NCBI GenBank assembly: GCA_043822785.1
Contig: JBDRBN010000074.1
Span: 203 to 64,202 of the forward strand
Direction: 5' to 3'
Origin: Pseudomonadota bacterium
Lineage (GTDB): Bacteria > UBA10199 > 2-02-FULL-44-16 > JAAZCA01
DNA: 64,000 bases
The position numbers were made by a program, and so were the translations under genes. The notes below the pieces were generated by a model. That model was not told the origin of the DNA and ran no database searches. It was given only the letters and a program-made list of their open reading frames with translations. Below, piece by piece: positions 2,775-35,459 of this stretch. Each line of letters opens with the position of its first letter. Position 1 is the stretch's first letter.

Positions 2775-3659
2775 TTGATGGAAATTATACTCTGTACAAT
2801 GTGTATTTTTGTTGCAGTCTTTGCTGCGATATTTGCTGTAAGTGAATATCTTAGACGAAGGCGACTTCTTGGCGAAGCTACATCTTCCAAAGTAGGCAAC
2901 AAGTCAGCTCTGCAGAATATTGCATTTGCGCTTGGAAGGGTCTTTGAAGGCATTGGCGAATTACCCTTCATTTCTTCAATAAATGCTAGAGCAGAAAATC
3001 GACTTCAAAAAGCAGGCATTGATTCTAAAGAAATCGCAGCTGGATTTGTGGCTCTTGAAATAATCCTAATTTTATTAGGAGCTGCCATGGCTTTGGCACT
3101 CTTTAATAATCATCCATTTGTTGCAGCCACAGTCGGAGGAGCATCGCTTTGTCTGTTTTTAGAACTCTGGCTTTTTTTTAAGATCAGAACCAGGCGAGAA
3201 TCAATACAGCGCGATCTTCCGTTTGCGCTCGACATGTTGACCTTATGCGTAGAGGCGGGGCTCGATCTTGCCCAGGCAATTACCAAGGTATCTGTTAGAC
3301 TCATGCGCGGCCCTTTGGCCCAGGAGCTGCATAAGGTTGACAGATCGCTACGCTCAGGCGCGTCGCGAGGCGAAGCTTTGTTAAAAATGACAGGCCCAAC
3401 TAGCGATCCTGCGCTTGCGTCTTTGGCATCCCTTCTCATTCGAGCAGATAGAATGGGCTCTGGCGTTGGCCCTATCTTAAGAAGCGCATCAATTCGCCTG
3501 CGTCGCACGCGATTTTTGCAGGCGGAGAGGCGTGGCGCAACTGCAGCACAAAAAGCGCTCGTACCCTTAATCATTTGTATAATGCCTGCGACGTTTGTCA
3601 TTGTATTTGGCCCGATTGCGGTGCGCCTCATCACAGGCGGCCTGGAGGCGCTGCTATGA
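2775..3659 (+). CDS. type II secretion system F-domain protein (TadB/TadC-like)
   Basis: Multi-TM protein. The segment LPFALDMLTLCVEAGLDLAQAITKV ... ALASLASLLIRADRMGSGVGPIL is typical of the GspF/TadC T2SSF domain. Confidence 0.65.
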   Translation: MMEIILCTMCIFVAVFAAIFAVSEYLRRRRLLGEATSSKVGNKSALQNIAFALGRVFEGIGELPFISSINARAENRLQKAGIDSKEIAAGFVALEIILILLGAAMALALFNNHPFVAATVGGASLCLFLELWLFFKIRTRRESIQRDLPFALDMLTLCVEAGLDLAQAITKVSVRLMRGPLAQELHKVDRSLRSGASRGEALLKMTGPTSDPALASLASLLIRADRMGSGVGPILRSASIRLRRTRFLQAERRGATAAQKALVPLIICIMPATFVIVFGPIAVRLITGGLEALL

Positions 3660-4126
3660 TTTCAATCACAACATTAATCGCCTTAGCGCTTATCGCCGGC
3701 TCAATCATTTTGACCCGAAAGATTTATTCAAACAAAGATGATGAAAAGATAGATGCTTCAAGCAAAATGCAGCTCGATTCTGATGAAAGATGCATTATAC
3801 CTGATGCAAGAGAGTGGTGCAAAACGCTTGAGAAGTTGTGCAAAAGCGCCGTGTTTTGTTTTGACGAGTCTTATCGTCTGGCAGCGTTGGGAGATGAGGC
3901 GCTTAAATCTGCAATAGATGCCAAAAGCCAAGCTCAGCAACACCTTGTAGATATAGCTCCATCCAGCGCTTGTTCTGATTTGCTAGAAATGATGGCCACA
4001 GCCAGGCGAAAAACATGGGCGTCAAAGGAAGTAAATTGGAATGGCAGTATTATGCATGCGTGCGTAACTCCTGTGGGTAAGAGATGGATGATTGTATGTA
4101 TTAAGAAGCTAGAAGTCAGAAGTTAG
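3653..4126 (+). CDS. hypothetical single-pass membrane protein
   Basis: Start chosen at the internal Met (MISITTLIALALIAGSIILT) overlapping the upstream stop (ATGA). One TM helix, then a soluble domain. Confidence 0.4.
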   Translation, partial: AMISITTLIALALIAGSIILTRKIYSNKDDEKIDASSKMQLDSDERCIIPDAREWCKTLEKLCKSAVFCFDESYRLAALGDEALKSAIDAKSQAQQHLVDIAPSSACSDLLEMMATARRKTWASKEVNWNGSIMHACVTPVGKRWMIVCIKKLEVRS

Positions 4127-4133
4127 AGGTCAG

Positions 4134-4550
4134 ATGAAAACTAAAATTATCCATATTATTACATCGTTTGTGTTCTTTATGCTCATGCTTTTATGTATAA
4201 GCTGTTCGCGGGGTGATATCGACAAAGCATCCATGCAAGCATCTGAGCTATCTTATAGCAGCGAGCAGACTGTAAACCAAAGGCTTGCCGAAGAGCTCGT
4301 GCGCCATGGCCGCATGCTTTTGCGATCCGGCAGATATGGGGCTGCCATGGATTCAGCAATGCTCGCAGCATTCTTATCAGATAAAGCGGAGCACACAGCT
4401 TTTGAGTCAGAATGCAGAAGCGCACTTTTGCATGCGGTAAAAAATGCAAAAAGACAAGCCCTTGATGCTCGCGATGCAGGTGATCTTCGTCAATTCACAA
4501 GAATCGAGAACACAGCAGATGCCATGGAGCAAAGCCTGGAGGCAAGATGA
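4134..4550 (+). CDS. hypothetical lipoprotein
   Basis: The N-terminus MKTKIIHIITSFVFFMLMLLCISCS has a signal peptide and a lipobox-like Cys. Confidence 0.45.
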   Translation: MKTKIIHIITSFVFFMLMLLCISCSRGDIDKASMQASELSYSSEQTVNQRLAEELVRHGRMLLRSGRYGAAMDSAMLAAFLSDKAEHTAFESECRSALLHAVKNAKRQALDARDAGDLRQFTRIENTADAMEQSLEAR

Positions 4551-4825
4551 GGCATGGCTTTAAAATGAAACTCAAACCCCTTGATGGCGATAAACTTGTA
4601 GAAGGTGAGTTTAATAAGCATGGCATATTGTTTCTCATGTCAAACGCGAGAACGCTTATCCTTTCTCCTCTGCCGGATCACCGAGCGCTTATCCATGCTA
4701 TATTTCTTTATAAGAAAAAAAAGGTATTTGCCGCTTCTCTTAGAGAAGGTCTTGGTCTTGGAAACGACGGTTTTGTTAGTCTCTCACACGGCGCGCATAT
4801 AGATGTGGGGAGTAAGAGGTTAACA

Positions 4826-5716
4826 ATGATTTTTGATAAGAAAAAGCGTCTCAAACGCAAGCACTGGCTGGCTTTGGCTCTTTTGCCTCTGGTTGTCTTT
4901 TCTTTTGCGCTAGTTCGTCACAAAGTGACAGGATCGCCAAACAAAAAATCACAAATTGCGCGCCAGCAAAAGCTTGCTGATAATAAATCAGCATCACAGC
5001 TCATAAGCGAAGCAAAGATGCATATGCGCGCAGGAAATGCCGATCAGGCTAGCCTTACACTGATGGAAGCGATGGATCAAAACCCGCACAACAAGGAAGC
5101 CATGGATCTGTTGGAGTCCATCAACAAAGATGCGGCGCTTGCGAAATCCTCTATTAATGAAAAGGAGGTCGATCTTATCTCTTCGGCAAAAGACATGTAC
5201 GACGAAGGCAGACAGCGCATGCAAGAAGGAGATGTTGCCGGCGCACATGATCTCTTTTCTCGTGCTCTTAAAGAATTATCTGAAGCAGAGATAACCGTTC
5301 CATTTAAGTCAGCTCTTCTTGCGGCAAAGGATAACGCGCTTTTAATGCTCAAGCAGGAGATGGCTCCAAGGCTGCTCGAAGCGCAAAAGCTCTTTGACGC
5401 TGCCCGCAAAAAGGAGACTAAAGAAGCCATAGACTTACTCGCACAGGCATATGCTTATGCCAGTTCTGTTGCAAAGATCCTTCCGCAAAATGATGAGGCG
5501 CTCTCAGTTTGCAATAAGCTGCGCAAAGAGATTGAGGCTGTCTCTAGCCGCTTAATTCTTTCTGCACAGGCGATCGAGCGTTTTTCAGGATGTAAGCAGG
5601 CATTGGTTGAATACGAACGCATTGCATCCGTGCTCAAGGATATAGATTCGGACGCAGCAGCAGTTGCAGCAAACGAAGCACGCAGGTGCAGCCGATCACA
5701 AGGGGGTGATCTGTGA
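4826..5716 (+). CDS. membrane-anchored helical/TPR-like protein
   Basis: Internal ATG at 4826 is preceded by AAGAGG 8 nt upstream. A TM segment (HWLALALLPLVVFSFALV) is followed by an Ala/Leu-rich helical, TPR-like sequence. The ORF as given starts at 4547; the start is uncertain. Confidence 0.45.
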   Translation: MIFDKKKRLKRKHWLALALLPLVVFSFALVRHKVTGSPNKKSQIARQQKLADNKSASQLISEAKMHMRAGNADQASLTLMEAMDQNPHNKEAMDLLESINKDAALAKSSINEKEVDLISSAKDMYDEGRQRMQEGDVAGAHDLFSRALKELSEAEITVPFKSALLAAKDNALLMLKQEMAPRLLEAQKLFDAARKKETKEAIDLLAQAYAYASSVAKILPQNDEALSVCNKLRKEIEAVSSRLILSAQAIERFSGCKQALVEYERIASVLKDIDSDAAAVAANEARRCSRSQGGDL

Positions 5717-6891
5717 TGTGGCGCATAGAAATAGCAATCCTGGTCGCTATGTCGATATGTTCGTATTCGCTTAAGTCATATGCAATACAGCGCAAACCAC
5801 AGTTCTTTGTCGAGCCGTCAAGGAGCATGGGTTTTGAAATCCCTTATGGTTGGCAAGCACAGGCAGGGTTTGGAAATAGCATTGCCGATCTTTCAGACGG
5901 CAAGGGCAACCAAATACGAGTTATATCAAGGGCGCATTCTAAAGGACCCAACGCTGATAACATCAAGCAACTGATAGCTAAGCTCTATTCAGGGGCCAGG
6001 ATTAGAAGGCAGAATGCGCTGATAACTCTGTTTGATGTTGATGCGCGCGGTGGGCTAAGGGGGGCGCTTATCCGCTTGGGTACGGATGCTTGCGATGTGA
6101 ACATCCTATGCATTAGTGCTAAATCTGATTTTGCAGAAACATTTCTTGTTGCAAGGGAGCTGGCTGCGAATATGAGATGCGATCTTGCAGCTGATCCATC
6201 CCTATGGGACGGGGATCTACAGCAAGTGATCGCAAGGGCAACTTTTGCTTCTTTGGATGGAAGGGCCGGCTGCTCCGGAGTGAGTGAGGAACTAACAAGG
6301 ATGGCTCTGATAGCAAAGCAGCTGGGCAAGTTATCCGATGCAAAGCAGCTCGAATCTATTGCTCACGATCTATCCCTTAGGGCGCATATGAAGGGCATGC
6401 AAAAAAATTTGAGTTTCTTTTCGCTCCTCATGAGCGCTTCGCTTGCCCTGGATGAAGGCGATATCGATAAGGCCAAGAAGTTAATGAGAAGAGTTGAACC
6501 GTTCAATGCATCTCGCTCGCAATTGTTTTTGTCACTTAAAGTTAAGATCGCGCGCCTTGAAAATGATGTGGCTTATGCAGAGCAAGCGTTTGAGCAAATA
6601 AAAGGGGATGTATGTGGCCGCTCGGGCGCTATGGCTGCATATGAACTGGGCCGCGCAATAGGCGCTGCGGATTCCGGCAGAGCCATTAAGCTCTTTGAGG
6701 ATTCAATCGAGGCAGACCCGACTTTTGTTCCTGCCTATGTTGCACTTGGACAAATGCTTGTGGATAGCGGCATGCCTGCAACTGCGGTCTCTGCGCGCAT
6801 GAATGCGCGCTTGTCCAAGGCACCAAAGGTGCCAGAGGTACAAAGCTTCAAAATGCGCTTCGCAACAGTTGAAAAGAGTGTTCATCCATGA
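5713..6891 (+). CDS. secreted TPR-like repeat protein
   Basis: Signal peptide MMWRIEIAILVAMSICSYS. The C-terminal helical repeat region AYELGRAIGAADSGRAIKLFEDSIEADPTFVPAYVALGQML looks TPR-like. Overlaps the upstream gene by 4 bp. Confidence 0.5.
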   Translation: MMWRIEIAILVAMSICSYSLKSYAIQRKPQFFVEPSRSMGFEIPYGWQAQAGFGNSIADLSDGKGNQIRVISRAHSKGPNADNIKQLIAKLYSGARIRRQNALITLFDVDARGGLRGALIRLGTDACDVNILCISAKSDFAETFLVARELAANMRCDLAADPSLWDGDLQQVIARATFASLDGRAGCSGVSEELTRMALIAKQLGKLSDAKQLESIAHDLSLRAHMKGMQKNLSFFSLLMSASLALDEGDIDKAKKLMRRVEPFNASRSQLFLSLKVKIARLENDVAYAEQAFEQIKGDVCGRSGAMAAYELGRAIGAADSGRAIKLFEDSIEADPTFVPAYVALGQMLVDSGMPATAVSARMNARLSKAPKVPEVQSFKMRFATVEKSVHP

Positions 6892-6905
6892 GAAGATATG
6901 CACTA

Positions 6906-7471
6906 TGCCAAAATCCACGCGTAAGTCCAAGGCCGTCGATTACAATAAGCTCTCACTTCGTCAAACTGTAGCACAGATAAGAGAACACCTCGAGAAAGCT
7001 GGCTTTGACCCGGTGCTCACCGGCAAAGCGTGTGCTGGCGTTTATATGGGCGCGCAGCAAAAGCCCAAGGCCATCGAGTTTGTGGTCAAGGAATACAATG
7101 TCAACGAGCTGGATGATGCCATGAAAAAGATAGGCTTTAAGCTTACGAGCATGAATACGTATGAGAACAAGCGCAGCCCCTTTGATATTGTCTTTTTGCC
7201 GCCACCCCTAACAGTTGGAGACGATCTGGTGGATGATGTGGTCATGGTTAGGGCGCGCCCTGGCAAGGTAAAGCTTCTCAATCCTACCGATTGTGTTCGG
7301 CAAAGGCTCTCGGTGTATTATCGCTGGGGTGATGCTGATGCGCTTGCAGAAGCAGTTCAGGTGGCTAAACGCAATGATATCGACATGGAACTGGTGAAAA
7401 GGTGGTCTGAATGGGAATGGGCTTCGGATAGGTATGAAGAGTTTGTGAAGGCGTTGAAAAGTGATCAGTGA
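6906..7471 (+). CDS. hypothetical protein
   Basis: ORF starting MPKSTRKSK. No confident domain assignment. Confidence 0.4.
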
Positions 7472-7525
7472 CCAGTAACCAGTGATCAGTAATCAGTTTC
7501 GCGAAATACGAATCAGGAGGCTTTC

Positions 7526-8914
7526 ATGAGCGAATTGCTCAAATACATCAGAGACAACAAAGACCGCCATCTGGAACAAATGAAAGAGTGCTTAAGGATA
7601 GAGAGCATATCTGCAATCCCATCCAAAGAGCCAGACATACGCAAGTGCGGGGAGTGGTTGGTAGAGCTTCTAAAATCCATAGGATTTGAGAACGCCTCTT
7701 TAAAAGAGACCGGAGGCTTGCCTGCAGTATATGCAGACTGGCTTCACGCAGGCAAGGATATGCCAACCATAATGTGCTATGGCCACTATGATGTTCAGCC
7801 AGTGGATCCTATTGAAAAATGGAGAACGCCTCCGTTCGAACCTACCATTAAGGAAGGCTATATCTATGGAAGGGGCACGTGCGACGACAAGTGCCAGTTC
7901 CTTGCGCACATATTTGCCTTAGAAGCTTTGATGAAAACAGATGGCAAATTGCCTGTGAGCGTGAAGGTATTTTTGGAAAGCGAAGAGGAAGGCGGCACTG
8001 GCAGCACTCACCGGTTTGTGCAAAAGAATACGGATCTTCTCTCATGCGATGCTGTGGTGCTTTCTGATACTGCATGGTTTTCGCACGATTTGCCCACTAT
8101 GATTTATTCGCTAAGAGGCATTGCCTATTTTGAGGTCAAAGTGATCGGCCCAAACAGGGATCTGCACTCAGGGCAGTATGGCGGCATGGTGCAAAATACT
8201 TTAAACGCCATGGCGCGCATAATCGCCAAGCTTCACGATGACGATGGTCGCATTGCAATACCTGGCATCTATGACGATGTGCAGCCCATATCAAAGGACG
8301 AGCGCGCAGAGTTTGCCAAGGTCAGCGAGCCGGATGAGAAGACCATGAAAGAGTTAGGCGTGGATGCGCTTTGGGGTGAAAAAGGGTTTACTTCTAATGA
8401 GCGCAACTGGGCTAGGCCTGCTTTGGATGTAAATGGAATTTGGGGTGGATACATGGCCGAGGGCTCAAAGACCGTAATTGCGCATGAGGGAGGATTTAAA
8501 ATTAGCATGAGACTTGTGCCAGACCAAAAGATAAAAAGAGTCCACAAGCTCTTGGATGATTATATTCAAAAGATCTGCCCGCAAGGCGTGCGGGCAGAGG
8601 TAAAGCTCTTGCATGGCGGCGAGCCGGTAATGGTGTCAACTGACAATCCGTTCATAGCATGTGCTCAGGATGCTATGGAAAAGGCATTTAAAAAGAGGCC
8701 GGTGCTTGTGAGGGAGGGCGCCTCTGTTCCCATAACAGCCGAGTTTCAATCAGCTCTAAACGCTGCGCCCATCATGATGGGCTTTGGCCTTATTGACGAT
8801 GACATCCATTCGCCCAACGAGCGTTTTAAACTCGATCACTTTTATAAAGGCATAGAGGCGTGCGCCCATTTCTACTCAGAGGCGGCTGCCATGAAGGCAA
8901 AGCGATTGCTATGA
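7526..8914 (+). CDS. M20 family metallopeptidase (dipeptidase/ArgE/DapE-like)
   Basis: Motifs HYDVQP and GRGTCDDKCQ, plus the EEEGG metal-binding region, are characteristic of peptidase family M20. RBS AGGAGG upstream. Confidence 0.85.
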   Translation: MSELLKYIRDNKDRHLEQMKECLRIESISAIPSKEPDIRKCGEWLVELLKSIGFENASLKETGGLPAVYADWLHAGKDMPTIMCYGHYDVQPVDPIEKWRTPPFEPTIKEGYIYGRGTCDDKCQFLAHIFALEALMKTDGKLPVSVKVFLESEEEGGTGSTHRFVQKNTDLLSCDAVVLSDTAWFSHDLPTMIYSLRGIAYFEVKVIGPNRDLHSGQYGGMVQNTLNAMARIIAKLHDDDGRIAIPGIYDDVQPISKDERAEFAKVSEPDEKTMKELGVDALWGEKGFTSNERNWARPALDVNGIWGGYMAEGSKTVIAHEGGFKISMRLVPDQKIKRVHKLLDDYIQKICPQGVRAEVKLLHGGEPVMVSTDNPFIACAQDAMEKAFKKRPVLVREGASVPITAEFQSALNAAPIMMGFGLIDDDIHSPNERFKLDHFYKGIEACAHFYSEAAAMKAKRLL

Positions 8915-9669
8915 AATCATCGCGCGATGTTAATCTCGAGTATTATCTCAAAAAATCTCCAGGGAGGGCTGATTACTGGCGAAAGATGGCTGCGCCCAGA
9001 TTCCGCATGACGGTTTTTTTGGACTTGATGAAGTTCACTGCTCCTTCTGCGCTCGTTGATCTGGGATGCGGTAATGGAGAACTTCTCAAGGAGGTCCGCG
9101 TAGAGCATCCTAAGACACGCCTCTGCGGAATCGATTTGTCATCGATGTTCATCGAGTCCAATCGCCATAGGGATCCATCTATAGATTGGCATACCTTAGA
9201 TCTAGATCGCGAAAGAAACGTTCCAAGGCATTTAGCTGAGAGCTTTGATATAGTGATGGCATCAGAGATCATCGAACACCTTGAGCATCCTGATATATTC
9301 CTAAAAAATGCCAAGACGTTGGCAAGGATAGGCGGGGGCATGCTCTTTCTTTCTACACAAAGCGGCAGGGTTTGGGAGACCGAGAAGAGGGTAGGCCACA
9401 GGCGTCACTTCAGCGCAGCTGAGATGGAAAAGCTGCTAAGCCAAGCAGGTTGGAGTCCGATTCGTGTTTGGAATGCCGGATTTCCGTTTCATGATTTGTC
9501 TAAATGGTTTGCAAATATAAACCCTCAGATGACGATGAATGCATTTAGCAACAGACCATACACTTTAGTGCAGAATATAATATGCATGGTGTTAAGGCTT
9601 GCTTATAAATTCAATTCCAATAAGAGTGGCGCGCAGCTCTTTGCGATTGCAGAAAGAAAGCAGGTCTGA
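8911..9669 (+). CDS. class I SAM-dependent methyltransferase
   Basis: Motif I VDLGCGNGELL. Start taken at MKSSRDV, overlapping the M20 stop (ATGA). Confidence 0.75.
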   Translation: MKSSRDVNLEYYLKKSPGRADYWRKMAAPRFRMTVFLDLMKFTAPSALVDLGCGNGELLKEVRVEHPKTRLCGIDLSSMFIESNRHRDPSIDWHTLDLDRERNVPRHLAESFDIVMASEIIEHLEHPDIFLKNAKTLARIGGGMLFLSTQSGRVWETEKRVGHRRHFSAAEMEKLLSQAGWSPIRVWNAGFPFHDLSKWFANINPQMTMNAFSNRPYTLVQNIICMVLRLAYKFNSNKSGAQLFAIAERKQV

Positions 9670-10476
9670 GTGACAGAGCATTTGGAAATGAGCGTCGGCA
9701 CAGAGAAAAAGTTTGGGTACGAGTGGGATCTCTACAGAGAGATCATACCGCTTCACGAAAAACAGTTTGTGGAGTGGATAAGTCCTGTTCCCCTTTCGTT
9801 TTTCAAGGGAAAGAGGTTTCTCGATGCTGGATGCGGCATAGGCCGAAACAGCCTTTGGGCTCTTAAGGCAGGCGCTGCTTCTGGATATGCCTTTGATTAT
9901 GACGAGCGCACTGTGAGTGTGGCTCGTGAGAACCTCAAAAAGTTTTCCAGTTGCCAGGTGAAATTCGAATCCATCTATGACATCTCCTTTAATGATGAGT
10001 TTGATGTGGCCTTTTGCATAGGCGTAATTCAGCATCTTGCTCATCCCAGAAAGGCTGTGGAAAAGCTCGTAAAGGCTATAAAGCCTGGCGGCACTCTCAT
10101 AATTTGGGTTTATGCCCATGAGGGAAATGAGAGATATCTAAAATTCGCTGATCCTATAAGGGCGCACTTCACTTCGAGGGTTCATCCTCTGATAACAAGA
10201 TACATCTCAAAGGCGCTTACCTTCTTGCTTAAGATCTACCTTCTCTTTCCGCATGGGAATGCGTATCTAAACCTTTTAAAGGAGAGATCTTTCAGACATG
10301 CTGAGGCAATGGTCTTTGATCAGCTTCTTCCGAGCATCGCTCATTACTTTAAAAGAGAAGAGGTGGAGGCCTTGGTAAAAGGGCTGCCAGTGAAGGCGCT
10401 TCACCTCACGCATACAAATGGGATGTCATGGACCCTTGTTGTTCAAAAGGAGAGCGGGGGGGATCTTGCTGAATAA
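9670..10476 (+). CDS. class I SAM-dependent methyltransferase
   Basis: Motif I FLDAGCGIGRNS. GTG start immediately after the upstream stop. Confidence 0.75.
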   Translation: MTEHLEMSVGTEKKFGYEWDLYREIIPLHEKQFVEWISPVPLSFFKGKRFLDAGCGIGRNSLWALKAGAASGYAFDYDERTVSVARENLKKFSSCQVKFESIYDISFNDEFDVAFCIGVIQHLAHPRKAVEKLVKAIKPGGTLIIWVYAHEGNERYLKFADPIRAHFTSRVHPLITRYISKALTFLLKIYLLFPHGNAYLNLLKERSFRHAEAMVFDQLLPSIAHYFKREEVEALVKGLPVKALHLTHTNGMSWTLVVQKESGGDLAE

Positions 10477-24172: not shown

Positions 24173-24514
24173 TCAGCAAGTAAGATGAAACGCTGCCACT
24201 GTCTTGCTCTTATCCTCCAGCGAGTTGTACTCCACCACTGCCTCAGGCGTGGGAACCGATATCAACTCGATGTTGTTTTGTTGGCAATAATGCAGAACTT
24301 CAGAGAGCACCTCGCACATGCCGCTGGCCCCTGTGCCTATTATGAGCGTCTCTGGCGGGGGAGTTAAACATTCCGCCAGATCAAAGACAGAAACTTCGTG
24401 TCCGCTCTTGCGCCACCACTCAGGCTTTACGCCATTGGGAGTTATGATGACGTCATTATGATAATCCTTACCGTCTATTTTGATATGACCAAAGCTGTAT
24501 GAGTCGATTTTCAT
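24173..24514 (-). CDS. Mth938-like domain protein (DUF498)
   Basis: 113 aa. The sequence IIITPNGV...LIIGTGASG fits the Mth938-like fold family. Confidence 0.6.
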   Translation of the reverse strand: MKIDSYSFGHIKIDGKDYHNDVIITPNGVKPEWWRKSGHEVSVFDLAECLTPPPETLIIGTGASGMCEVLSEVLHYCQQNNIELISVPTPEAVVEYNSLEDKSKTVAAFHLTC

Positions 24515-24529
24515 AGGAGAAATTATAAA

Positions 24530-25681
24530 TTATTTTGGAGTCAAATTGGCCGGCTCTTCAAGTATATCTAAGATAGATTGAGCACAGTAAACGCGGTCGC
24601 GTTTGGTTTTGCTGACTTCCTTTAAGATCATTAATTTCTGTAATTTATCAATAGCTCGCTGCGCTGTTGTGTAAGCAACCCCCAGAGTTTGGGCAGCTTT
24701 ATTAATTGTGATAAATGGATTTGCTGCGATTAAATCTACCAGTTGTATGGGAGTTTTGGTGGATGCCCCGGCAACCGACTTTCGCCAATTGACCAATTTT
24801 TGATTTATTCGCTCAGCTCTGCTCAGAGCATCCTCTGATTGACGGGCAACTCCATTGAGGAAATATTCTAACCATGTTTCCCATTCGCTTCGCTTGGTAA
24901 CACTTAGAAGCAGATCATAATAGTCATTCCTTGTAGCTTCAAAGAAAGCGCTGAGATAAAGAAGTGGGGTTGGCAATATTGCACGTTCAACTAAAAAGAG
25001 TGTGATTAGTAAGCGTCCTATACGTCCATTACCGTCAAGAAATGGATGAATGGCTTCAAATTGGTAGTGGATAAGAGCTGCTTGTACCAGTGGAGGAAGG
25101 GATAAATCGTGCATAAATATTTCCAAATCACCAAGACATGCCATCAATTCACTTGGGGGAGGCGGTACATAAGTTGCGTTTATCAATGTGCTGCCGGGCC
25201 TTCCTATCCAGTTTTGAGAACGGCGAAACTCACCCGGTGTTGCATGATCTCCTCGTACACCGTGCATAAGTTTTTTGTGTAATTCGCTTAAAAGACGAAG
25301 AGAAAGCGGAAGGGTTTTTAATCTTTTAATCCCATACTCAAGGGCTACAACATAGTTAGCCACTTCGCGAAGGTCGTCAGGGCTTCGGTCGACATGCGCA
25401 CCTGCTTCATTTGCCAACAGTTCTCCCAGCGTTGCCTGTGTGCCTTCGATGCGGCTTGAAAGAACTGCTTCACGCCTTATAAAAGGGCGCATCAATAAAT
25501 GGGGGTTGGGCAACCTGCCACCTTCTCCTGCCAGCTTGCCGATTAAGCGGTCGGCATCTGAGAGGACACGCGAAAGCTTTAATGACCATTTTAACGTGGG
25601 TGGTAATCTGTTGGGTATAAATGCAGTATAGCCCTCTGGACACCGAATATCCCTGCCGGAGGCCTCATTTTTGTGGGGCAT
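24530..25681 (-). CDS. Fic family protein (with inhibitory SxxxEG motif and C-terminal winged helix)
   Basis: Fic motif HPFLDGNGRIGR. Upstream inhibitory-helix-like motif SSRIEGT. Confidence 0.9.
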   Translation of the reverse strand: MPHKNEASGRDIRCPEGYTAFIPNRLPPTLKWSLKLSRVLSDADRLIGKLAGEGGRLPNPHLLMRPFIRREAVLSSRIEGTQATLGELLANEAGAHVDRSPDDLREVANYVVALEYGIKRLKTLPLSLRLLSELHKKLMHGVRGDHATPGEFRRSQNWIGRPGSTLINATYVPPPPSELMACLGDLEIFMHDLSLPPLVQAALIHYQFEAIHPFLDGNGRIGRLLITLFLVERAILPTPLLYLSAFFEATRNDYYDLLLSVTKRSEWETWLEYFLNGVARQSEDALSRAERINQKLVNWRKSVAGASTKTPIQLVDLIAANPFITINKAAQTLGVAYTTAQRAIDKLQKLMILKEVSKTKRDRVYCAQSILDILEEPANLTPK

Positions 25682-26236: not shown

Positions 26237-26584
26237 TTACGTCTCCCGAATCATCATAAGCAACATCTTGAACCGCTCTGGGGCCTTGAGAGCGTGAGGC
26301 ACGCCCGCCGGCATCAAGATCGTTTCATCTTTGCCGACACGCCTGGGAACGCCACCGATCGTAATCTCCGCCAGGCCGTCCAGCACATAAACAAGCGCGT
26401 CGAATGGCGCCGTGTGCTCGCTGAGCCCCTGGCCCTTGTCAAAGGCGAACACTGTCACCGTCCCAGCCTTCTTCTTGATGATCTCGCGACTCACGACAGC
26501 GCCGGTCTGGTAGGCAACGAGCTCGAGCGCATTGCCGCCCTCGAACCTCTCGGTCGTCTTGCTCTCTTCATACTTAGTCATCAT
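26237..26584 (-). CDS. cupin domain protein
   Basis: 115 aa, small barrel-like sequence with GxxxxH-type motifs. Size and pattern suggest a cupin. Confidence 0.55.
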   Translation of the reverse strand: MMTKYEESKTTERFEGGNALELVAYQTGAVVSREIIKKKAGTVTVFAFDKGQGLSEHTAPFDALVYVLDGLAEITIGGVPRRVGKDETILMPAGVPHALKAPERFKMLLMMIRET

Positions 26585-26832: not shown

Positions 26833-27831
26833 CTAGAGGTGACCTACGGTTTTGTTTTTCTCATACTTCTTTACCGCATCCTTAAGCTCGCCAGCGATTA
26901 CGAACCTCAAATCTCCTGGCTCTACCACCTCGGCGTGACTTCCAAATGACATCACCCAACTCTTCATCTCGGCCGTTCCTTCGACCGTCATAGAAAGATC
27001 AATTGAACCGTCGCTGTTTTCGATTATCTCCTGCGTAGGATGCCACTTGCGTTCCTTGACGTAATAGGCAACGTCCTTATCGAAATGAATCTTCACCGGA
27101 ATCGGGTCTCCGTCCATCACCCGAAAACGTCCTCTCGTAAACTCCTCTATCGAGAAGTCCTCGGGTATTTTGAACTTGTGCTCAGTTAGATTTGCCTTCT
27201 CTATCCTGTCGAGAACAAAGAGGCGCTGCTGCTTGCGTTCGTGGCAAAAACCGATCACATAAATCGACCCACCCATGAACCATACGTGATATGGATCGAC
27301 CCTTCGGTCCAGGACTTCACCCCTAGAAGATTTGTATCTCATTTCTATTGTGTGATGCTCAAGCAAAGCTGTGTTTATCACGTCCACGGTCTCTCGTTGC
27401 CCGCGGTAGTCCTTCCTGCCATGCAGTCCCACCTTGAATGTCTTCGCCAGCCCATCAATGAAGGCATGAGACTCCGGACTAAGCATTGAGCGCACCTTCT
27501 CAAAGGCGCTCCTGAGCGATTCGGAAAATATAGTTCCCTCAAATGCTTTGAGATGATCGTGTGCTATAGAAAGAGCCATAAGCTCGGTGAGCGTAAAAGG
27601 TATGGGCATTTTCGAACGATAGCCCTCGACGAATAACCATCGCTCAGCGCCTTCTTCTTTTTCGGAATAAAGCGGAAAGCCTGCATGTTCCAGTGCTTCC
27701 ATGTCGCGATATATTGTGCGGACGTTGCTCTCTAACTCAGACGCAAGCTCGGGCACCGATACCCCCATTCGTCTTGCCTCAAGTATTTGCAATATCTGCC
27801 ACTGCCTTGATATCTGATCTCCCCTGGGCAT
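26833..27831 (-). CDS. HTH-WYL domain transcriptional regulator (DriD/PafBC/BrxR-like)
   Basis: N-terminal DeoR-type HTH (ILQILEARRMGVSVPELASEL). A WYL-type central domain and a C-terminal extension follow. Start at MPRGD has a GGAGG RBS. Confidence 0.75.
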   Translation of the reverse strand: MPRGDQISRQWQILQILEARRMGVSVPELASELESNVRTIYRDMEALEHAGFPLYSEKEEGAERWLFVEGYRSKMPIPFTLTELMALSIAHDHLKAFEGTIFSESLRSAFEKVRSMLSPESHAFIDGLAKTFKVGLHGRKDYRGQRETVDVINTALLEHHTIEMRYKSSRGEVLDRRVDPYHVWFMGGSIYVIGFCHERKQQRLFVLDRIEKANLTEHKFKIPEDFSIEEFTRGRFRVMDGDPIPVKIHFDKDVAYYVKERKWHPTQEIIENSDGSIDLSMTVEGTAEMKSWVMSFGSHAEVVEPGDLRFVIAGELKDAVKKYEKNKTVGHL

Positions 27832-27902
27832 CAGTACCTCCGTATGATGAAGCAAATCCTAAGTTAAAAACACGAAATCCTAAACGAATACAAACTGCAA
27901 GA

Positions 27903-29144
27903 TCACATCACGAGATTCTCCTCTTCTTCATCCTCGTCGACGTTTTTGCGCCTGACCAGCCGCGTGCTCTTCGTAGCCTTCACCTTTACCATATCCGCAA
28001 GAGGCTTTGGCACCTCTACCAGCCAGCTGTGTTTCTTCGCATAAGATTTGAACACCGGGCCGTTTAGCCTCACAAGATCGTCCCAAATTCCCAGAGCATG
28101 AAGACCAGCCTCGAACTCGTCGCGATAAGGGTCTTTCGAGTGGGGATAGTCCAGCGCAATGTCGTCGTGTATGTTGAGTGTCCGGCTGGCGCCAAAGACA
28201 CGATCGTAACCCTTTTTCATGGCCCACTGTATAGCAGCCTCTGTTATCGCCGTCTGGTCCTCGGCCAGAACGTGCAACTCGGCTTCCAGCTCCTTTTTCT
28301 TCCTGTCGATTACAGTGAGCCTGTTCACAAGGTCAACACCCTCTTCATTCCTGTACTCGTCCTTAGGGAGCACGTCGATGCGAAACTTGTGTGCGAAGAG
28401 CGGGCATATATCCTGATATGCGCAATAGCTGCAAAGGCCACTCTCTTTCGGTGGGAATTTGTCGGCAGCCTCGATTTGGTCTATCAGAGCTATTGTGCTC
28501 TTTTTGACATCCTCGAGCTGCTCAGCAGTTCTAGAAGAGCGCATTTCTTTATCGAAGACAACGTAGTGCCAGACAAGATCGGCTTTCTTCACATCCGGCC
28601 AGGCCTGCCTGAGTCCGATCTCGTACAGGGCAAGCTGGCGATCGCGATCAAGATATTCTTGCAGAGGAAGCGTGCCGGAAGTTTTATAATCGTGTATCTC
28701 GTAGAAGCCGTCCTCTTTCTCCACTATCCTGTCTAGATACCCCCTGACCCGATGGGTCTGGTTGTTGTCCAGACCGATCATGAGCTGTTTCTCTATTCCA
28801 AGGTTCTTTCCCTGATCAAACGGCGCGTACCGATCGTAGTATTTCTCGATCGCATCAAGGCCTATCCGACGATAATCTTCGGCCGTGCGGTCCGTCCGGA
28901 TTACAAAGACATGCTCGCCGAAGTTTCTGTCCCAGAGATCGTTGAAGAGGGCCTTTAGATCTTCTGCGGTGTTGTCGCGGAAGGAGCGCTCGGCGTAGAG
29001 CTTCTCCATAACTTCATGAAAGCGCTTTCCCATGAAAGCCTCGATTGAGTCCTCTTCGCGCTTTATGCGATCGATATACTTGTACTTGTATTGCAACGGG
29101 CAATTTTCGTACGTAGAAAGTCTGCTATGAGAATAGACAGTCAT
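27903..29144 (-). CDS. Cas4/RecB-like PD-(D/E)XK nuclease with Fe-S cysteine cluster and C-terminal extension
   Basis: N-terminal YSHSRLSTYENCPLQYKYKYI and nuclease motifs EIHDYKTSG and QLALYE. C-terminal CSYCAYQDICP gives a four-Cys cluster together with the N-terminal Cys. About 150 extra C-terminal residues end in an acidic tail. Start taken at MTVYSH, which has a GGGGAGGTG RBS. Confidence 0.7.
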   Translation of the reverse strand: MTVYSHSRLSTYENCPLQYKYKYIDRIKREEDSIEAFMGKRFHEVMEKLYAERSFRDNTAEDLKALFNDLWDRNFGEHVFVIRTDRTAEDYRRIGLDAIEKYYDRYAPFDQGKNLGIEKQLMIGLDNNQTHRVRGYLDRIVEKEDGFYEIHDYKTSGTLPLQEYLDRDRQLALYEIGLRQAWPDVKKADLVWHYVVFDKEMRSSRTAEQLEDVKKSTIALIDQIEAADKFPPKESGLCSYCAYQDICPLFAHKFRIDVLPKDEYRNEEGVDLVNRLTVIDRKKKELEAELHVLAEDQTAITEAAIQWAMKKGYDRVFGASRTLNIHDDIALDYPHSKDPYRDEFEAGLHALGIWDDLVRLNGPVFKSYAKKHSWLVEVPKPLADMVKVKATKSTRLVRRKNVDEDEEEENLVM

Positions 29145-29253
29145 CTCGATCACCTCCCCTGGCCCGAATGGGCTCTGATAATAAAATATAGCAATTATAT
29201 CTGCAAGCCATGCCTGCTTAGCCAAACTTCGCACTTTTTTATCTTCAGATACG

Positions 29254-29664
29254 TTATCCAGACGCAACCACGCATTCGCACACGTTAAGCAGCCGTATGA
29301 TAAAGCGCCAGGCGTCGCGCGTGGGAAACTCCATACTAAATTCAGCATGATTCTCATTTTTGCGACAGCTGACTTTTAGGATGGAGATATCATCGTTTCT
29401 GTATTGAAGCCTGAACTGCACGCCGGAAACACTAGGACGACCTGGGATCGTAAGGTTTCCCTCTATAATGAACCTTCTTATGACGTCCAGTAATGTCTCT
29501 CCATCCGCCCATAAGTATTCCTCGTGGACCACAAAGCCCGAACACCCGCGCGAGGGTTTAATCCGAAGCTGAACGCTCAGACCATAACCCTCAAATCGAC
29601 TCACCGGTCTCACGTCCAGAAAAGCACCCTTATAGCCTTTCAGCCATAGTCTAGGCATTATCAC
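29254..29664 (-). CDS. hypothetical protein (136 aa) upstream of the nuclease
   Basis: ORF on the same strand 110 bp upstream of the nuclease. No recognisable domain. Confidence 0.4.
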   Translation of the reverse strand: MIMPRLWLKGYKGAFLDVRPVSRFEGYGLSVQLRIKPSRGCSGFVVHEEYLWADGETLLDVIRRFIIEGNLTIPGRPSVSGVQFRLQYRNDDISILKVSCRKNENHAEFSMEFPTRDAWRFIIRLLNVCECVVASG

Positions 29665-29793
29665 CTCCTGCTAGAATCATACCCCAGTAGTGCGTCATCT
29701 AAGGTCACCATAACTTTTCTGGCCCTGCCTGATCTCATGGCCCTGCCTGTCACACCACTGCCTTACACTTAAGACAAGGAAAGGGGGGTTGTT

Positions 29794-30237
29794 ATGAACA
29801 AGATAATCTCTATAGCTATTTGCCTCGCGGCGGTCGTGCTCTTATCAATCGAGGCTTATGGGCAGACACATATCGGCAAATACAGTGCTAATCCATATCA
29901 GACGGATTCGACGAGCAACCCCTACGGCGCGGGCAGCCCGTATCGCTCGGACAGCATAAACAATCCGTACGGCAAATACGGAAGTCCCTACAGCAACGAG
30001 TCGGTAAACAACCCTTACGCAACTGACGCACCCAAGCTCTACGACAACGATGGCAACTACCGAGGCAGGCTTAGCAACAACCCGTATGACGCTGACTCTA
30101 CTTCAAACCCTTATGGACGATACGGCAGCCCGTATTCGCCGGACAGCATCAACAACCCCTATGGCGCTGGAAGTCCATACAGGCTGGACAGCCCGAACAA
30201 CCCGTATGGGCAGGGGCTCGATATGTATGGAGATTAA
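29794..30237 (+). CDS. secreted tandem-repeat protein (NPYG/SPY repeats)
   Basis: Signal peptide MNKIISIAICLAAVVLLSIEAYG. At least 8 repeats of (S/N)NPYGxxGSPYxxDSxNNPY follow. Confidence 0.6.
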   Translation: MNKIISIAICLAAVVLLSIEAYGQTHIGKYSANPYQTDSTSNPYGAGSPYRSDSINNPYGKYGSPYSNESVNNPYATDAPKLYDNDGNYRGRLSNNPYDADSTSNPYGRYGSPYSPDSINNPYGAGSPYRLDSPNNPYGQGLDMYGD

Positions 30238-31123: not shown

Positions 31124-32032
31124 ATGAAAATCATATCAAAACAGGGTGATCCGAGCTTGGCTGAAGTTTACGTTGCCAGGTTCAGAGACGACGACATGTT
31201 CATGGCAGAGTTTGTGGATGCCCGCGACCCAAGCCTGCCCATAGATAAAAAATGGGTGATAATAGTTTCTACCCAGTTCGGATGCCCCATAGCTTGCCCC
31301 ATGTGCGATGCCGGCGGCGACTACGCGGGCGATCTGAAGGCAGAAGAGATTTTAGCACAAATTGATGCTGTGGTTGAAAAGCATGGGCCACACAGACTTG
31401 CCTCTGCAGAAAAATTTAAGATCCAGTTTGCCAGAATGGGAGAGCCATCACTCAACCCTGCGGTCCTTGATGTGCTTGGGGATCTGCCAGATCGTTATGG
31501 CGCGCCAGGGCTTATCCCGTGCATTGCCACATCAGCTCCGGCAAAGGCCAACGGCTGGTTTGAAAGGCTTAGGGAAATACGGCATGATATATATGATCAT
31601 AGACCCTTTCAGCTTCAGCTCTCAGCCAACTCCACTGACGAGGCTGCGCGCGACAGGCTTATGCCTGTTAAGAAGATGAGCCTTGAGGAGCTTAGCAATT
31701 ACGCTTCGTCCTTTTATCAAAAAGGAGGCAGAAAGATATCGCTCAACTTTGCGCTCACAAAGGGCATTGCTGTTGATCCTATCGTGATCTCAGATCTGTT
31801 TGATCCTGCCTGTACCTGTATAAAGATAACTCCTCTCAACCCCACCATGCGCTCAGAAGAATCCGGCATGGATACAGCTCTTCCACCCAATGCGCCGGAT
31901 GAGGCCAAGAACCTGTGTGATGATCTTATGCAAAGGGGCTTTGATGTGATCCTCTCTATCGGCGATGTGCGCGAAAACGAGATAGGCTCCAACTGCGGCA
32001 TGGCAGTGCGAAAAATGCGCGCAAATGCATAG
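31124..32032 (+). CDS. radical SAM protein (function unknown)
   Basis: FGCPIACPMC is a CxxxCxxC motif. 302 aa. Confidence 0.6.
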   Translation: MKIISKQGDPSLAEVYVARFRDDDMFMAEFVDARDPSLPIDKKWVIIVSTQFGCPIACPMCDAGGDYAGDLKAEEILAQIDAVVEKHGPHRLASAEKFKIQFARMGEPSLNPAVLDVLGDLPDRYGAPGLIPCIATSAPAKANGWFERLREIRHDIYDHRPFQLQLSANSTDEAARDRLMPVKKMSLEELSNYASSFYQKGGRKISLNFALTKGIAVDPIVISDLFDPACTCIKITPLNPTMRSEESGMDTALPPNAPDEAKNLCDDLMQRGFDVILSIGDVRENEIGSNCGMAVRKMRANA

Positions 32033-34872: not shown

Positions 34873-35459
34873 GGGGGGCGAAGAGATTTCGACGTGGACG
34901 ATGGAGTATGCGCGGCATGCCGACCTGTCAGTAAGTCGATAAACTATTGGCAAAACCATTAAGTGCCGAGCCTATGGCTCTTGCTGCCTAACTATAGGTA
35001 GCACGTCAACCGGATGACGCCCGCTAATCCGGAAGACGCCGCTAGCGGGCTTTGCTCTCTCAAGTTCTCCCTGGCACGAAAGAGCAAGACCCAGCAGGGA
35101 TAGCTTAAGCGAAATTCTTTCCTTGGGAGCTCGGTTAAGCGAAACTAAATACAAGGAATAAGCATGTAGAAGCGCACATAAAATCTTCGCGGACGGGAGT
35201 GCGATCAAAGGTCGCCTCGGGAGGTAACTCCCGATGAAAAACCCGGCTTACATCAGGGAAACCCTACCCTTGCGTCGTTCCCGCAAGGCGGGCGATCCTG
35301 AGGGGTGAAAGCCCTGCAGAGACTGTAATGATAGAAGGTACTATCGGAAAACGATAAATCTAAACCTTCTATAATACGCTGGGCTCCCTGTTAAAGGGAT
35401 GAAGAGATAGTCCATGCCGCAATGAAAATTGCGGATCACATGTCTCCCCGCCTCCACCA
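34873..35459 (+). ncRNA. ssrA: tmRNA (ssrA), unusually long
   Basis: 5' GGGGGCGAAGAGATTTCGACG and 3' CGCCTCCACCA can form a 7 bp acceptor stem. An in-frame tag ORF GCA AAA CCA TTA AGT GCC GAG CCT ATG GCT CTT GCT GCC TAA (AKPLSAEPMALAA) lies at 34950-34991. Located directly downstream of smpB. No canonical GGTTCGA T-loop could be found, and the 587 nt length is atypical. Confidence 0.6.

Follow-up and report, generated by a model that had tools for sequence, protein, structure and literature searches.

A putative DriD-like local regulon of a WYL regulator, a Cas4-like nuclease gene and the rare ORF3 family in an uncultivated bacterium

What does a regulator of the WYL type control when its gene is located behind that of a Cas4-like nuclease? 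The question is raised by three co-oriented genes on the minus strand of a 64,000-nucleotide (nt) stretch of contig JBDRBN010000074.1 (assembly GCA_043822785.1; positions 203 to 64,202, hereafter the window), which encode, in this order, a small protein (ORF3), an Fe-S nuclease and a regulator with helix-turn-helix (HTH) and WYL domains. The initial annotation, made from the sequence alone, had interpreted them as an operon and as a ligand-gated nuclease system. Our comparative analysis speaks, with a modest preference, for a DriD-like local regulon that responds to stress or to single-stranded DNA (ssDNA) under the control of a WYL activator of the DriD/PafBC type. Homology, the operator, the two promoters and co-inheritance are the parts of this model that are based on sequence; ligand identity, activation rather than repression, the polarity of the nuclease and the biological role are those that we infer.

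Recurrence, regulator and promoters of the unit

The unit recurs in eight independent loci, the window among them (module loci hereafter). Seven of them share the order ORF3, nuclease and WYL regulator, one of these with a GmrSD insertion, and the remaining locus lacks the nuclease. An ORF3-like gene, the nuclease and the WYL gene are found in L085, L171 and L183, the last on a frameshifted low-coverage contig, and in L088, where the ORF3-like gene is incomplete at the contig start. The contig end cuts the nuclease of L184, leaving an ORF3-like gene and the nuclease N-terminus, and L170 harbors an ORF3-like gene, the nuclease, GmrSD and the WYL gene. In L182 the WYL gene (78% identical to that of the window) stands immediately after ORF3 (66% identical), and both are the closest relatives of their window counterparts. 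The WYL proteins of the module loci are 58-78% identical to one another, whereas those encoded near other nuclease homologues (L026, L039 and L076) show only 25-32% identity and are therefore unrelated paralogues. An HTH-WYL gene is located near the nuclease in about six of 168 surveyed loci, and immediately downstream only in the closest relatives. In a neighbour-joining tree all module nucleases fall into one subclade, within which a few non-module members (P0004, P0005) are nested. The conserved core of the unit hence consists of ORF3 and this WYL subfamily, usually with the nuclease in between. The expected co-occurrence of the three genes accordingly holds for the closest clade, with the exception of the nuclease-free locus, but it does not extend to a general pairing of the nuclease with WYL regulators.

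The regulator comprises the Pfam domains HTH_11 (PF08279, 42.6 bits), WYL (PF13280, 67.3 bits) and WCX (PF25583, 68.8 bits) in this order, all above cutoff. Its best sequence match in the Protein Data Bank (PDB) is DriD of Caulobacter crescentus (8TP8, E = 2.8e-16, residues 5-321); 7TZV and 7U02, two further DriD structures, are matched as well (identities of the structures according to PMC10853764). PafC (E = 1e-12) and PafBC (E = 1.5e-11) follow as second-best PDB matches, and the similarity to BrxR (E = 0.019) and CapW (E = 0.12) is marginal. The RWHVR motif, which marks repressors of the CapW/BrxR type (PMC11662680), is absent from the WYL position of all module orthologues, where SIYVI or TIYVV is found instead. 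A link to BrxR and CapW, which had been envisaged together with one to DriD and PafBC, is thus not borne out. The regulator shares with DriD the architecture of winged HTH, three-helix bundle, WYL and WCX, and its R38 and R42 align with the base-reading arginines Arg37 and Arg41 of DriD, which contact guanine. Of the ten mapped ssDNA contacts of DriD, five are kept (Y166, R176, Y191, R203 and F205, equivalent to DriD Y168, R178, Y192, R204 and W206) and five are substituted. In six module orthologues the whole HTH, the pair R38/R42 and the conserved ssDNA-contact positions are invariant. On the basis of these similarities we classify the regulator as a new, distant member of the DriD/PafBC kind of activators.

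The alignment of the ORF3 upstream regions from five loci revealed a motif TGxC-N7-GxC[AG] that is followed after exactly 11 nt by a -10 element TAnnnT, with no -35 hexamer (P1; Table 1). The same architecture precedes ORF3 in L182, L183, L171 and L184, and it is also located in front of neighbouring genes in all module loci. The distance from the -10 element to the ORF3 ATG is 16-19 nt in all loci. The full pattern, with the consensus TGACCTTCCCTGACAC-N10-TAnnnT, occurs two to four times in nearly every module locus and always shortly upstream of gene starts, as compared with 21 occurrences in 2.9 Mb of non-module loci. A position weight matrix (PWM) of the box, which was built from 15 strict sites, retrieved four further sites in module loci outside the training set; all of these 15 plus 4 sites lie just upstream of gene starts. 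The PWM gave one weak match in the 2.87 Mb of control loci, and over the 64 kb of the window it recognised two sites only, both in the ORF3 intergenic region. Since the P1 pattern required the -10 element, we ran a control scan with the box alone, in which TAnnnT was found exactly at +11 for 18 of 79 loose box matches in module loci versus 3 of 778 in controls.

The DriD box reads CGxC-N7-GxCG, and DriD-activated promoters have no recognisable -35 element; their binding site extends over the -35 position and is always equally far from the -10 (PMC13004042). The predicted P1 architecture matches this description: an operator YGxC-N7-GxCR covers the missing -35 at a fixed distance to the -10, and the use of divergent promoters is shared as well. 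The half-sites differ, being TGAC or TGTC here and CGAC in DriD. Glu40, which reads C1 of the DriD box, is replaced by Tyr41 in the regulator, and the T instead of C at box position 1 is consistent with this Glu-to-Tyr change in the recognition helix. PafBC and SiwR, the actinobacterial WYL activators, act through a -26 element, and the promoter-proximal half-site of P1, which starts 16 nt upstream of the -10, corresponds to the region that both of them use. The differences are that the window site has two half-sites, that a single WYL gene takes the place of the PafB/PafC pair, and that the locus has no proteasome link. Two alternative readings of the operator, a direct repeat of TGAC and a single element resembling RecA-NDp, were rejected, because the DriD-type reading with two half-sites accounts for the same bases and agrees better with the conserved arginine pair.

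A second, sigma70-like promoter (P2) is located between ORF3 and the nuclease. In each of the eight module loci its pattern TTGC[AG]x-N17-TAnnn[AT] directly follows the ORF3 stop codon, against a background of 0.12 per kb, and in L182 it immediately precedes the WYL gene. A generic promoter and terminator scan of the spacers made no P2 call, because the -35 hexamer TTGCAG matches three of six consensus positions and remains below threshold, so that P2 is recognised only by its conservation across loci. In the window, the ORF3-nuclease spacer measures 109 nt and the nuclease-WYL spacer 71 nt, and neither of them contains a terminator-like hairpin; in four other module loci 8-16 nt separate the nuclease stop codon from the next gene. 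Three loci (window 29145-29177, minus strand; L171:4968-5000; L184:5109-5140) have a small GC hairpin (GCCC-ATTC-GGGC and equivalents) between the P2 -10 and the Shine-Dalgarno sequence of the nuclease. The three genes thus form a conserved unit, but not the simple operon initially supposed, since a promoter separates ORF3 from the nuclease in all eight loci. With the P1 operator in front of ORF3 and P2 in front of the nuclease, it is primarily ORF3 and not the nuclease that appears to be gated, which disagrees with the notion of a ligand-gated nuclease.

The divergent P1-type site of the window faces the gene of a secreted protein with NPY(G)/SPY repeats. We regard this gene as a probable co-regulated target, considering that a 73%-identical homologue (L184:2793-3245, minus strand) is part of an operon behind another box. 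Box promoters also precede members of an unannotated family of 175-181 amino acids (aa) that recurs in L171 (3859-4386), L184 (3997-4524) and L170 (10021-10566); it is located directly behind a strong box promoter in L171 and L184 and is absent from the window. The box-regulated genes, including this recurrent family, secreted proteins and lipoproteins, have no Pfam matches. In L170 a co-oriented string of genes (3283-9339) encodes a protein of 132 aa, an RNase_T-like exonuclease, the ORF3-like protein, the nuclease, GmrSD (a type IV restriction enzyme with DUF262/DUF1524) and the WYL regulator. The weak box site at the head of this string (3243-3274) is one of the four further sites retrieved with the PWM; behind the WYL gene, at 9439, there is another box-like site.

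All three minus-strand open reading frames of the initial annotation, and with them the three co-oriented genes, were retrieved, but each start codon needed correction and was reset from ribosome-binding sites and alignments of homologues (Table 1). The reading frame listed for the nuclease (27903-29357, 484 aa) is over-extended upstream and overlaps ORF3. All 81 nuclease homologues open with M-x-[IV]-Y-S-H-S, and GGAGGTGA is located 6 nt upstream of the corrected start; this common N-terminus and the upstream element define the shorter gene. The ATG of ORF3 is preceded by an AGGAGG Shine-Dalgarno sequence and every ORF3 homologue opens with M[PA]RL, and the N-terminus of the WYL regulator is identical throughout its orthologues.

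Table 1. Features of the locus, with positions in the window and the basis of each assignment
Feature	Position	Strand	Description and basis
ORF3	29254-29658	minus	134 aa, MPRLW..., ATG at 29658
Nuclease	27903-29144	minus	413 aa
Nuclease residues 1-250, Cas4/AddB-type PD-(D/E)XK domain (predicted)	28395-29144	minus	PF12705, invariant residues, AF2 model, Foldseek
Nuclease residues 251-413 and stop, DUF7307/Gp157-like C-terminal domain (predicted)	27903-28394	minus	Family conservation, DUF7307 matches, BFVD Foldseek
WYL regulator	26833-27831	minus	332 aa, MPRGDQISRQW, ATG at 27831
P1, predicted DriD-type operator and -10	29676-29707	minus	TGACCTTAGATGACG - 11 nt - TATGAT, no -35; pattern and PWM matches; ends 17 nt before ORF3 ATG
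Predicted divergent P1-type site	29738-29769	plus	TGGCCCTGCCTGTCA - 11 nt - TACACT; PWM match; 24 nt upstream of the gene at 29794
P2, predicted sigma70-like promoter	29178-29206	minus	TTGCAG-N17-TATTAT; ORF3-nuclease spacer, 33 nt upstream of nuclease ATG; cross-locus conservation
Gene of secreted 147-aa protein, NPY(G)/SPY repeats	29794-30237	plus	Open reading frame and signal-peptide-like N-terminus; no family match

The nuclease and ORF3

Pfam PDDEXK_1 (PF12705) covers residues 5-248 of the nuclease (E = 3.5e-34, 119.3 bits versus a cutoff of 22). The residues C15, D138, E149/D152-x-K154, Q170-xxx-Y174 and C238-xx-C241-x5-C247 are invariant in the 81 homologues, and the four cysteines C15, C238, C241 and C247 are predicted to form an Fe-S "staple". 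The AlphaFold (AF2) model has a mean predicted local distance difference test (pLDDT) score of 93.9, and Foldseek matches of the N-terminal domain comprise the AdnA nuclease domain, ACE1, AddB, Dna2 and Cas4 SSO0001 (E = 1e-9 to 1e-4) as well as RecE, EXO5 and MGME1. Profile, invariant residues and predicted fold agree in indicating a putative Cas4/AddB-type Fe-S PD-(D/E)XK enzyme, and the N-terminus, motifs II/III and cysteine cluster that had been recognised in the single sequence proved to be real. The protein shares with Cas4, AddB, AdnA, Dna2 and EXO5, and with the "solo-Cas4" or pfam12705 Cas4-like proteins, the fold, the D...(D/E)xK and QxxxY motifs and the four-cysteine cluster that spans the domain. 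Further likenesses with solo-Cas4 and pfam12705 proteins are the location outside of CRISPR loci and the patchy spread over environmental bacteria and archaea (Hudaiberdiev 2017). The nuclease differs from the Cas4/AddB-type enzymes by its lack of a helicase domain and of cas neighbours, and by a further conserved domain (about 165 aa), of which the Cas4-family literature examined makes no mention.

Several more specific assignments were rejected. The score for CRISPR-associated Cas4 (TIGR00372) is 40.3 bits and thus below the equivalog cutoff of 65. No cas-like genes were found among the annotated recurrent neighbour clusters of 82 nuclease loci or adjoining the window nuclease, whose neighbours are ORF3, the WYL gene and genes for a cupin, SoFic and a radical SAM protein. 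AddB/RexB models reach at most 26 bits versus cutoffs above 480, and their alignment is confined to the nuclease domain. A comparison with the TM0106-type RecB-family nuclease, which had been suggested at the outset, was run as well, and TIGR03491 is missing from the NCBIfam matches at E <= 0.01.

The C-terminal domain is conserved over the whole nuclease family and is predicted to consist of a helix of 44 residues followed by an alpha/beta unit (pLDDT 88.5 for the domain model). It was initially considered novel and without an obvious match. The window protein has indeed no Pfam match for this region at E <= 1, but 28 of 81 family members match DUF7307 "Pam3 gp33-like" at E < 0.01 (P0038 with 29.4 bits versus a cutoff of 27). 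A Foldseek search of BFVD retrieved small phage proteins of 120-180 aa (E = 1e-5 to 1e-3, template modelling score 0.4-0.66), one of them annotated as "Siphovirus Gp157"; no solved structure in the PDB matches. The predicted fold, a long N-terminal helix and an alpha/beta unit, thus resembles stand-alone phage proteins of the DUF7307 (Pam3 gp33-like) and Siphovirus Gp157 type, with the difference that cellular genomes encode it as a fusion with a nuclease and that the window protein remains below Pfam significance. The domain is thus not new to this locus; it defines a family in at least 595 species genomes. A BFVD match annotated as "host-nuclease inhibitor" prompted us to consider a Mu-Gam/Ku-like domain, which was rejected since neither a Ku/Gam structure nor the Mu-Gam Pfam family was matched.

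A search of the protein database yielded 2184 matches to nuclease homologues, and the full-length architecture of about 400-413 aa, including the C-terminal domain, is present in at least 595 confirmed loci of a collection with one genome per species. The hosts are bacteria and archaea, mostly anaerobes and candidate phyla, and include Omnitrophota, Aminicenantes, Atribacterota, Thermodesulfobacteriota, Dehalococcoidia, Methanosarcinales and DPANN. Among 2.9 million viral contigs a single close match was found, and 50,697 phage and 72,556 plasmid records contain no full-length match (identity at most 29%); the family is hence essentially cellular. A metagenome scan with the window nuclease returned mostly distant relatives (35-47% identity) and no further module loci. 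The Cas4 phylogenomics survey (Hudaiberdiev 2017) reports pfam12705 Cas4-like proteins in phages, in UvrD fusions and in COG1205 pairs, and describes neither the present fusion nor the module; literature searches that joined WYL with Cas4, with nucleases and with the DNA damage response gave no account of the module. Our study brings this large uncharacterised family with Cas4-like and DUF7307-like domains to attention.

The initial annotation had also allowed for a housekeeping repair nuclease with conserved chromosomal neighbours. This is borne out in part, as most members of the family stand alone in lineage-specific, housekeeping-like synteny, and the nuclease may be a general DNA-end processing enzyme. 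Recurrent neighbours are pepA-hemE-hemH downstream (nine loci), a gene of the uracil-DNA-glycosylase family upstream (seven loci), HAD hydrolases (six loci) and a PIF1 helicase with a WYL domain (six loci). One example is the stable housekeeping synteny of Thermodesulfobacteriota-like genomes, in which a divergent gene of the uracil-DNA-glycosylase family (L066:5099-5890, minus strand, and six other loci) flanks the nuclease and pepA, hemE and hemH follow (L071, L073 and L058). Another example is the PIF1-family helicase with a C-terminal WYL domain (PF05970, 1e-27; PF13280, 1.8e-7), located about 1.4 kb downstream of the nuclease (L037:7553-9385, minus strand, and five other loci, e.g., L032 and L034), which represents a second, independent association of the nuclease family with WYL. 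It was rejected as a tight partner of the nuclease in view of this distance and the opposite strand, and its position appears to reflect lineage-specific synteny.

ORF3 encodes a soluble protein of 134 aa. A word-indexed search retrieved 22 homologues that are well aligned, and an exhaustive comparison of the hidden Markov model with 1.84 billion representatives gave only 28 matches, about 23 of them genuine clusters of proteins with 120-170 aa. Searches of Pfam, NCBIfam, PADLOC, PHROG and PDB profiles returned no match. ORF3 is thus a very rare family without annotation, and a member of such a small family is flagged here as the predicted inducible output of P1.

Proposed mechanism and rival explanations

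In the proposed mechanism, the Fe-S nuclease and the regulator would be expressed constitutively, at a basal level, from P2. ssDNA that accumulates through DNA damage, or through the processing of foreign or linear DNA, would bind to the WYL/WCX pocket; the nature of this signal is suggested by analogy with DriD, PafBC and SiwR. The regulator dimer would bind to the box and recruit RNA polymerase to P1, whose induction would yield ORF3 and, by read-through, probably also the nuclease and the regulator. The divergent gene for the secreted protein would likewise be induced, and further box promoters would drive neighbouring genes. The most likely activity of the nuclease is the metal-dependent 5'-to-3' processing of ssDNA or DNA ends, as in enzymes of the Cas4/AddB/AdnA/EXO5 type, and its Gp157/DUF7307-like C-terminal domain with the long helix probably serves oligomerisation or the binding of a partner or of DNA. 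ORF3 would be the regulated effector of the system. New in this scheme are the layout with two promoters, the family of ORF3 and the link of a Cas4-like/DUF7307 nuclease to WYL, while the DriD/PafBC kind of activator is already known. If correct, it would extend the DriD/PafBC paradigm, i.e., ssDNA-sensing WYL activators and promoters without a -35 element, to uncultivated lineages. The operator, both promoters and the target genes are all predicted from sequence and thus directly testable.

The DriD regulon includes the nucleases recJ and bapE, the small effector didA and driD itself, and the combination of a nuclease and a small effector is reminiscent of the present locus. The comparison also discloses differences: the regulator gene of the window is located behind the nuclease under a separate sigma70-like promoter, in place of recA, recJ or didA the predicted targets are unannotated proteins, and the host is an uncultivated "Pseudomonadota" known as a metagenome-assembled genome. 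A number of observations weigh against a DriD-like regulon. The regulator is only about 25% identical to DriD and five of the ten ssDNA contacts are changed (S172 to R, R189 to G, R207 to V, Y240 to M and R288 to A), so that the ligand could be other than ssDNA. The ORF3 leader that starts from P1 would be very short, with about 10 nt, and would begin at or within the Shine-Dalgarno sequence (window 29659-29675, minus strand). The box-regulated genes are all unknowns, some of them secreted or lipoproteins, and no recognisable repair gene is among them. L182 manages without the nuclease, which is hence not essential to the ORF3-WYL circuit. Some module loci contain defence genes, namely GmrSD inside the L170 operon and, in L085, an NTP_transf_2 gene with an adjacent small open reading frame, which possibly represent a toxin-antitoxin pair. 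The source genome is represented by 64 kb, so that a genome-wide damage regulon cannot be demonstrated. Finally, the decision for an activator and against a repressor was drawn from promoter geometry, the ranking of similarities and the missing repressor motif.

The most serious competitor, which we consider possible but not probable, is a defence module against phages or other mobile genetic elements, in which the WYL protein would control a defensive nuclease and/or the ORF3 effector and would be switched on by infection-derived ssDNA, in analogy to the control of BREX, CBASS and GmrSD by BrxR and CapW. It draws on the genes just mentioned in L170 and L085, the latter pair located just upstream of the unit, and on the type I restriction-modification, AbiE, OLD-like and NucS/HNH genes that adjoin close relatives of the nuclease. 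The SoFic gene 1.1 kb from the WYL gene of the window, the rare and fast-evolving unknowns represented by ORF3 and the neighbouring box-regulated genes, and the Argonaute-associated Cas4-family enzyme ACE1, which acts with pAgo in defence, point in the same direction. BrxR and CapW resemble the regulator in domain order, the GmrSD gene of L170 recalls BrxR islands, and CapW-type repressors also sense ssDNA (PMC11662680), so that repair and defence roles are not cleanly separable. The initial statement that sequence alone does not decide between repair and immunity still stands. What argues against a dedicated defence system is that the three genes match only the generic WYL and Cas4 models of PADLOC and no system-specific component, with no PADLOC match for ORF3, and that the regulator ranks with DriD/PafBC and lacks RWHVR. 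Its gene is the last of the unit and not the first, and it does not lead a recognised defence system; moreover, its operator lies upstream of the -10, in contrast to the downstream operator of BrxR. The housekeeping neighbourhood of the window, its synteny with L184, which suggests vertical inheritance, and the stable lineage-specific synteny of the nuclease family at large add to this, and a DriD-like ssDNA-responsive regulon is therefore favoured.

The logic of the circuit could also be the opposite, with the WYL protein as a repressor: bound to the box, it would keep P1 shut and would be released by ssDNA or another ligand. The stretch needed by RNA polymerase overlaps with the box, ssDNA-responsive repressors with the same wHTH-WYL-WCX architecture exist, DriD itself is reported to negatively autoregulate, and half of the DriD ligand contacts are not conserved. 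We nevertheless consider repression rather unlikely: promoters of the P1 type have neither a -35 nor an extended -10 element and should be weak unless aided by an activator, and in about 18 promoters the box keeps a strict distance of 11 nt to the -10, as is typical of polymerase-contacting activators. The absence of RWHVR and the deviating operator position of BrxR, as outlined above, count against it as well. That the nuclease is a mere passenger, i.e., a solo Cas4-like housekeeping repair enzyme whose gene ended up by chance, in one lineage, in the slot between P2 and WYL without a functional tie to ORF3 and WYL, seems unlikely to us. L182 with its arrangement ORF3-P2-WYL, the extra gene in the same slot of L170, the more than 95% of surveyed family members without a WYL neighbour and the nested position of P0004 and P0005 are in line with it. 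On the other side, seven of the eight module loci, which represent at least three sequence-distinct groups, have kept the nuclease in the same slot, its stop codon is close to the next gene in four of them, all module nucleases belong to one subclade, and it would be logical for an ssDNA sensor to be paired with an enzyme that makes or processes ssDNA.

Phages commonly carry Gp157-like and Cas4-like genes, and the fusion of a Cas4-like exonuclease with a Gp157-like protein might accordingly be the remnant of a phage or plasmid recombination module. PHROG exonuclease families do match the nuclease domain, and the C-terminal fold matches small phage proteins. The single close match among the viral contigs, the lack of full-length matches in the phage and plasmid records, and the absence of integrase and structural genes near the window locus largely refute this origin, which is very improbable. 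A more far-reaching variant of the DriD-like regulon, which we put forward with considerable doubt, is that the nuclease and the WYL protein constitute a self-contained sensor of DNA ends: the constitutively co-expressed exonuclease with its Gp157-like domain would turn the free ends of broken or invading linear DNA into ssDNA, the activating ligand of the DriD-like factor, and the latter would fire its private box promoters for an unseen set of effectors. These effectors would comprise the ORF3 family, the 175-aa family and the secreted NPY-repeat and lipoproteins. If true, this would represent a new pathway of a signal-generating nuclease and a WYL activator, whose output is neither classical repair nor a catalogued defence system.

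Surroundings of the locus

The unit is embedded in ordinary chromosomal genes, including those for Lon, YdjC, glycosyltransferases, a radical SAM protein, an amidohydrolase, the Tad pilus and tmRNA, and SoFic is the only defence-like gene in its vicinity. The respective Fic-domain protein (Fic_N and Fic; 24530-25681, minus strand) matches the PADLOC SoFic model with E = 5e-120. Its gene is followed by a DUF498 gene (24173-24514, minus strand), and a cupin gene (26237-26584) is located between SoFic and the WYL gene. The tmRNA gene (34882-35198, plus strand) was detected with Rfam (89.7 bits) and not reported by ARAGORN. It lies about 5 kb from the module, which is located on its 5' side and is therefore not part of an island integrated at the tmRNA 3' end. 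The radical SAM protein (31124-32032, plus strand) exhibits a weak, sub-threshold similarity to RlmN/Cfr methyltransferases (45.8 bits versus a cutoff of 290). In L085 the gene immediately downstream of the module WYL gene (7288-9744, plus strand) encodes a protein of 819 aa with an adenylate/guanylate cyclase domain and RHS repeats.

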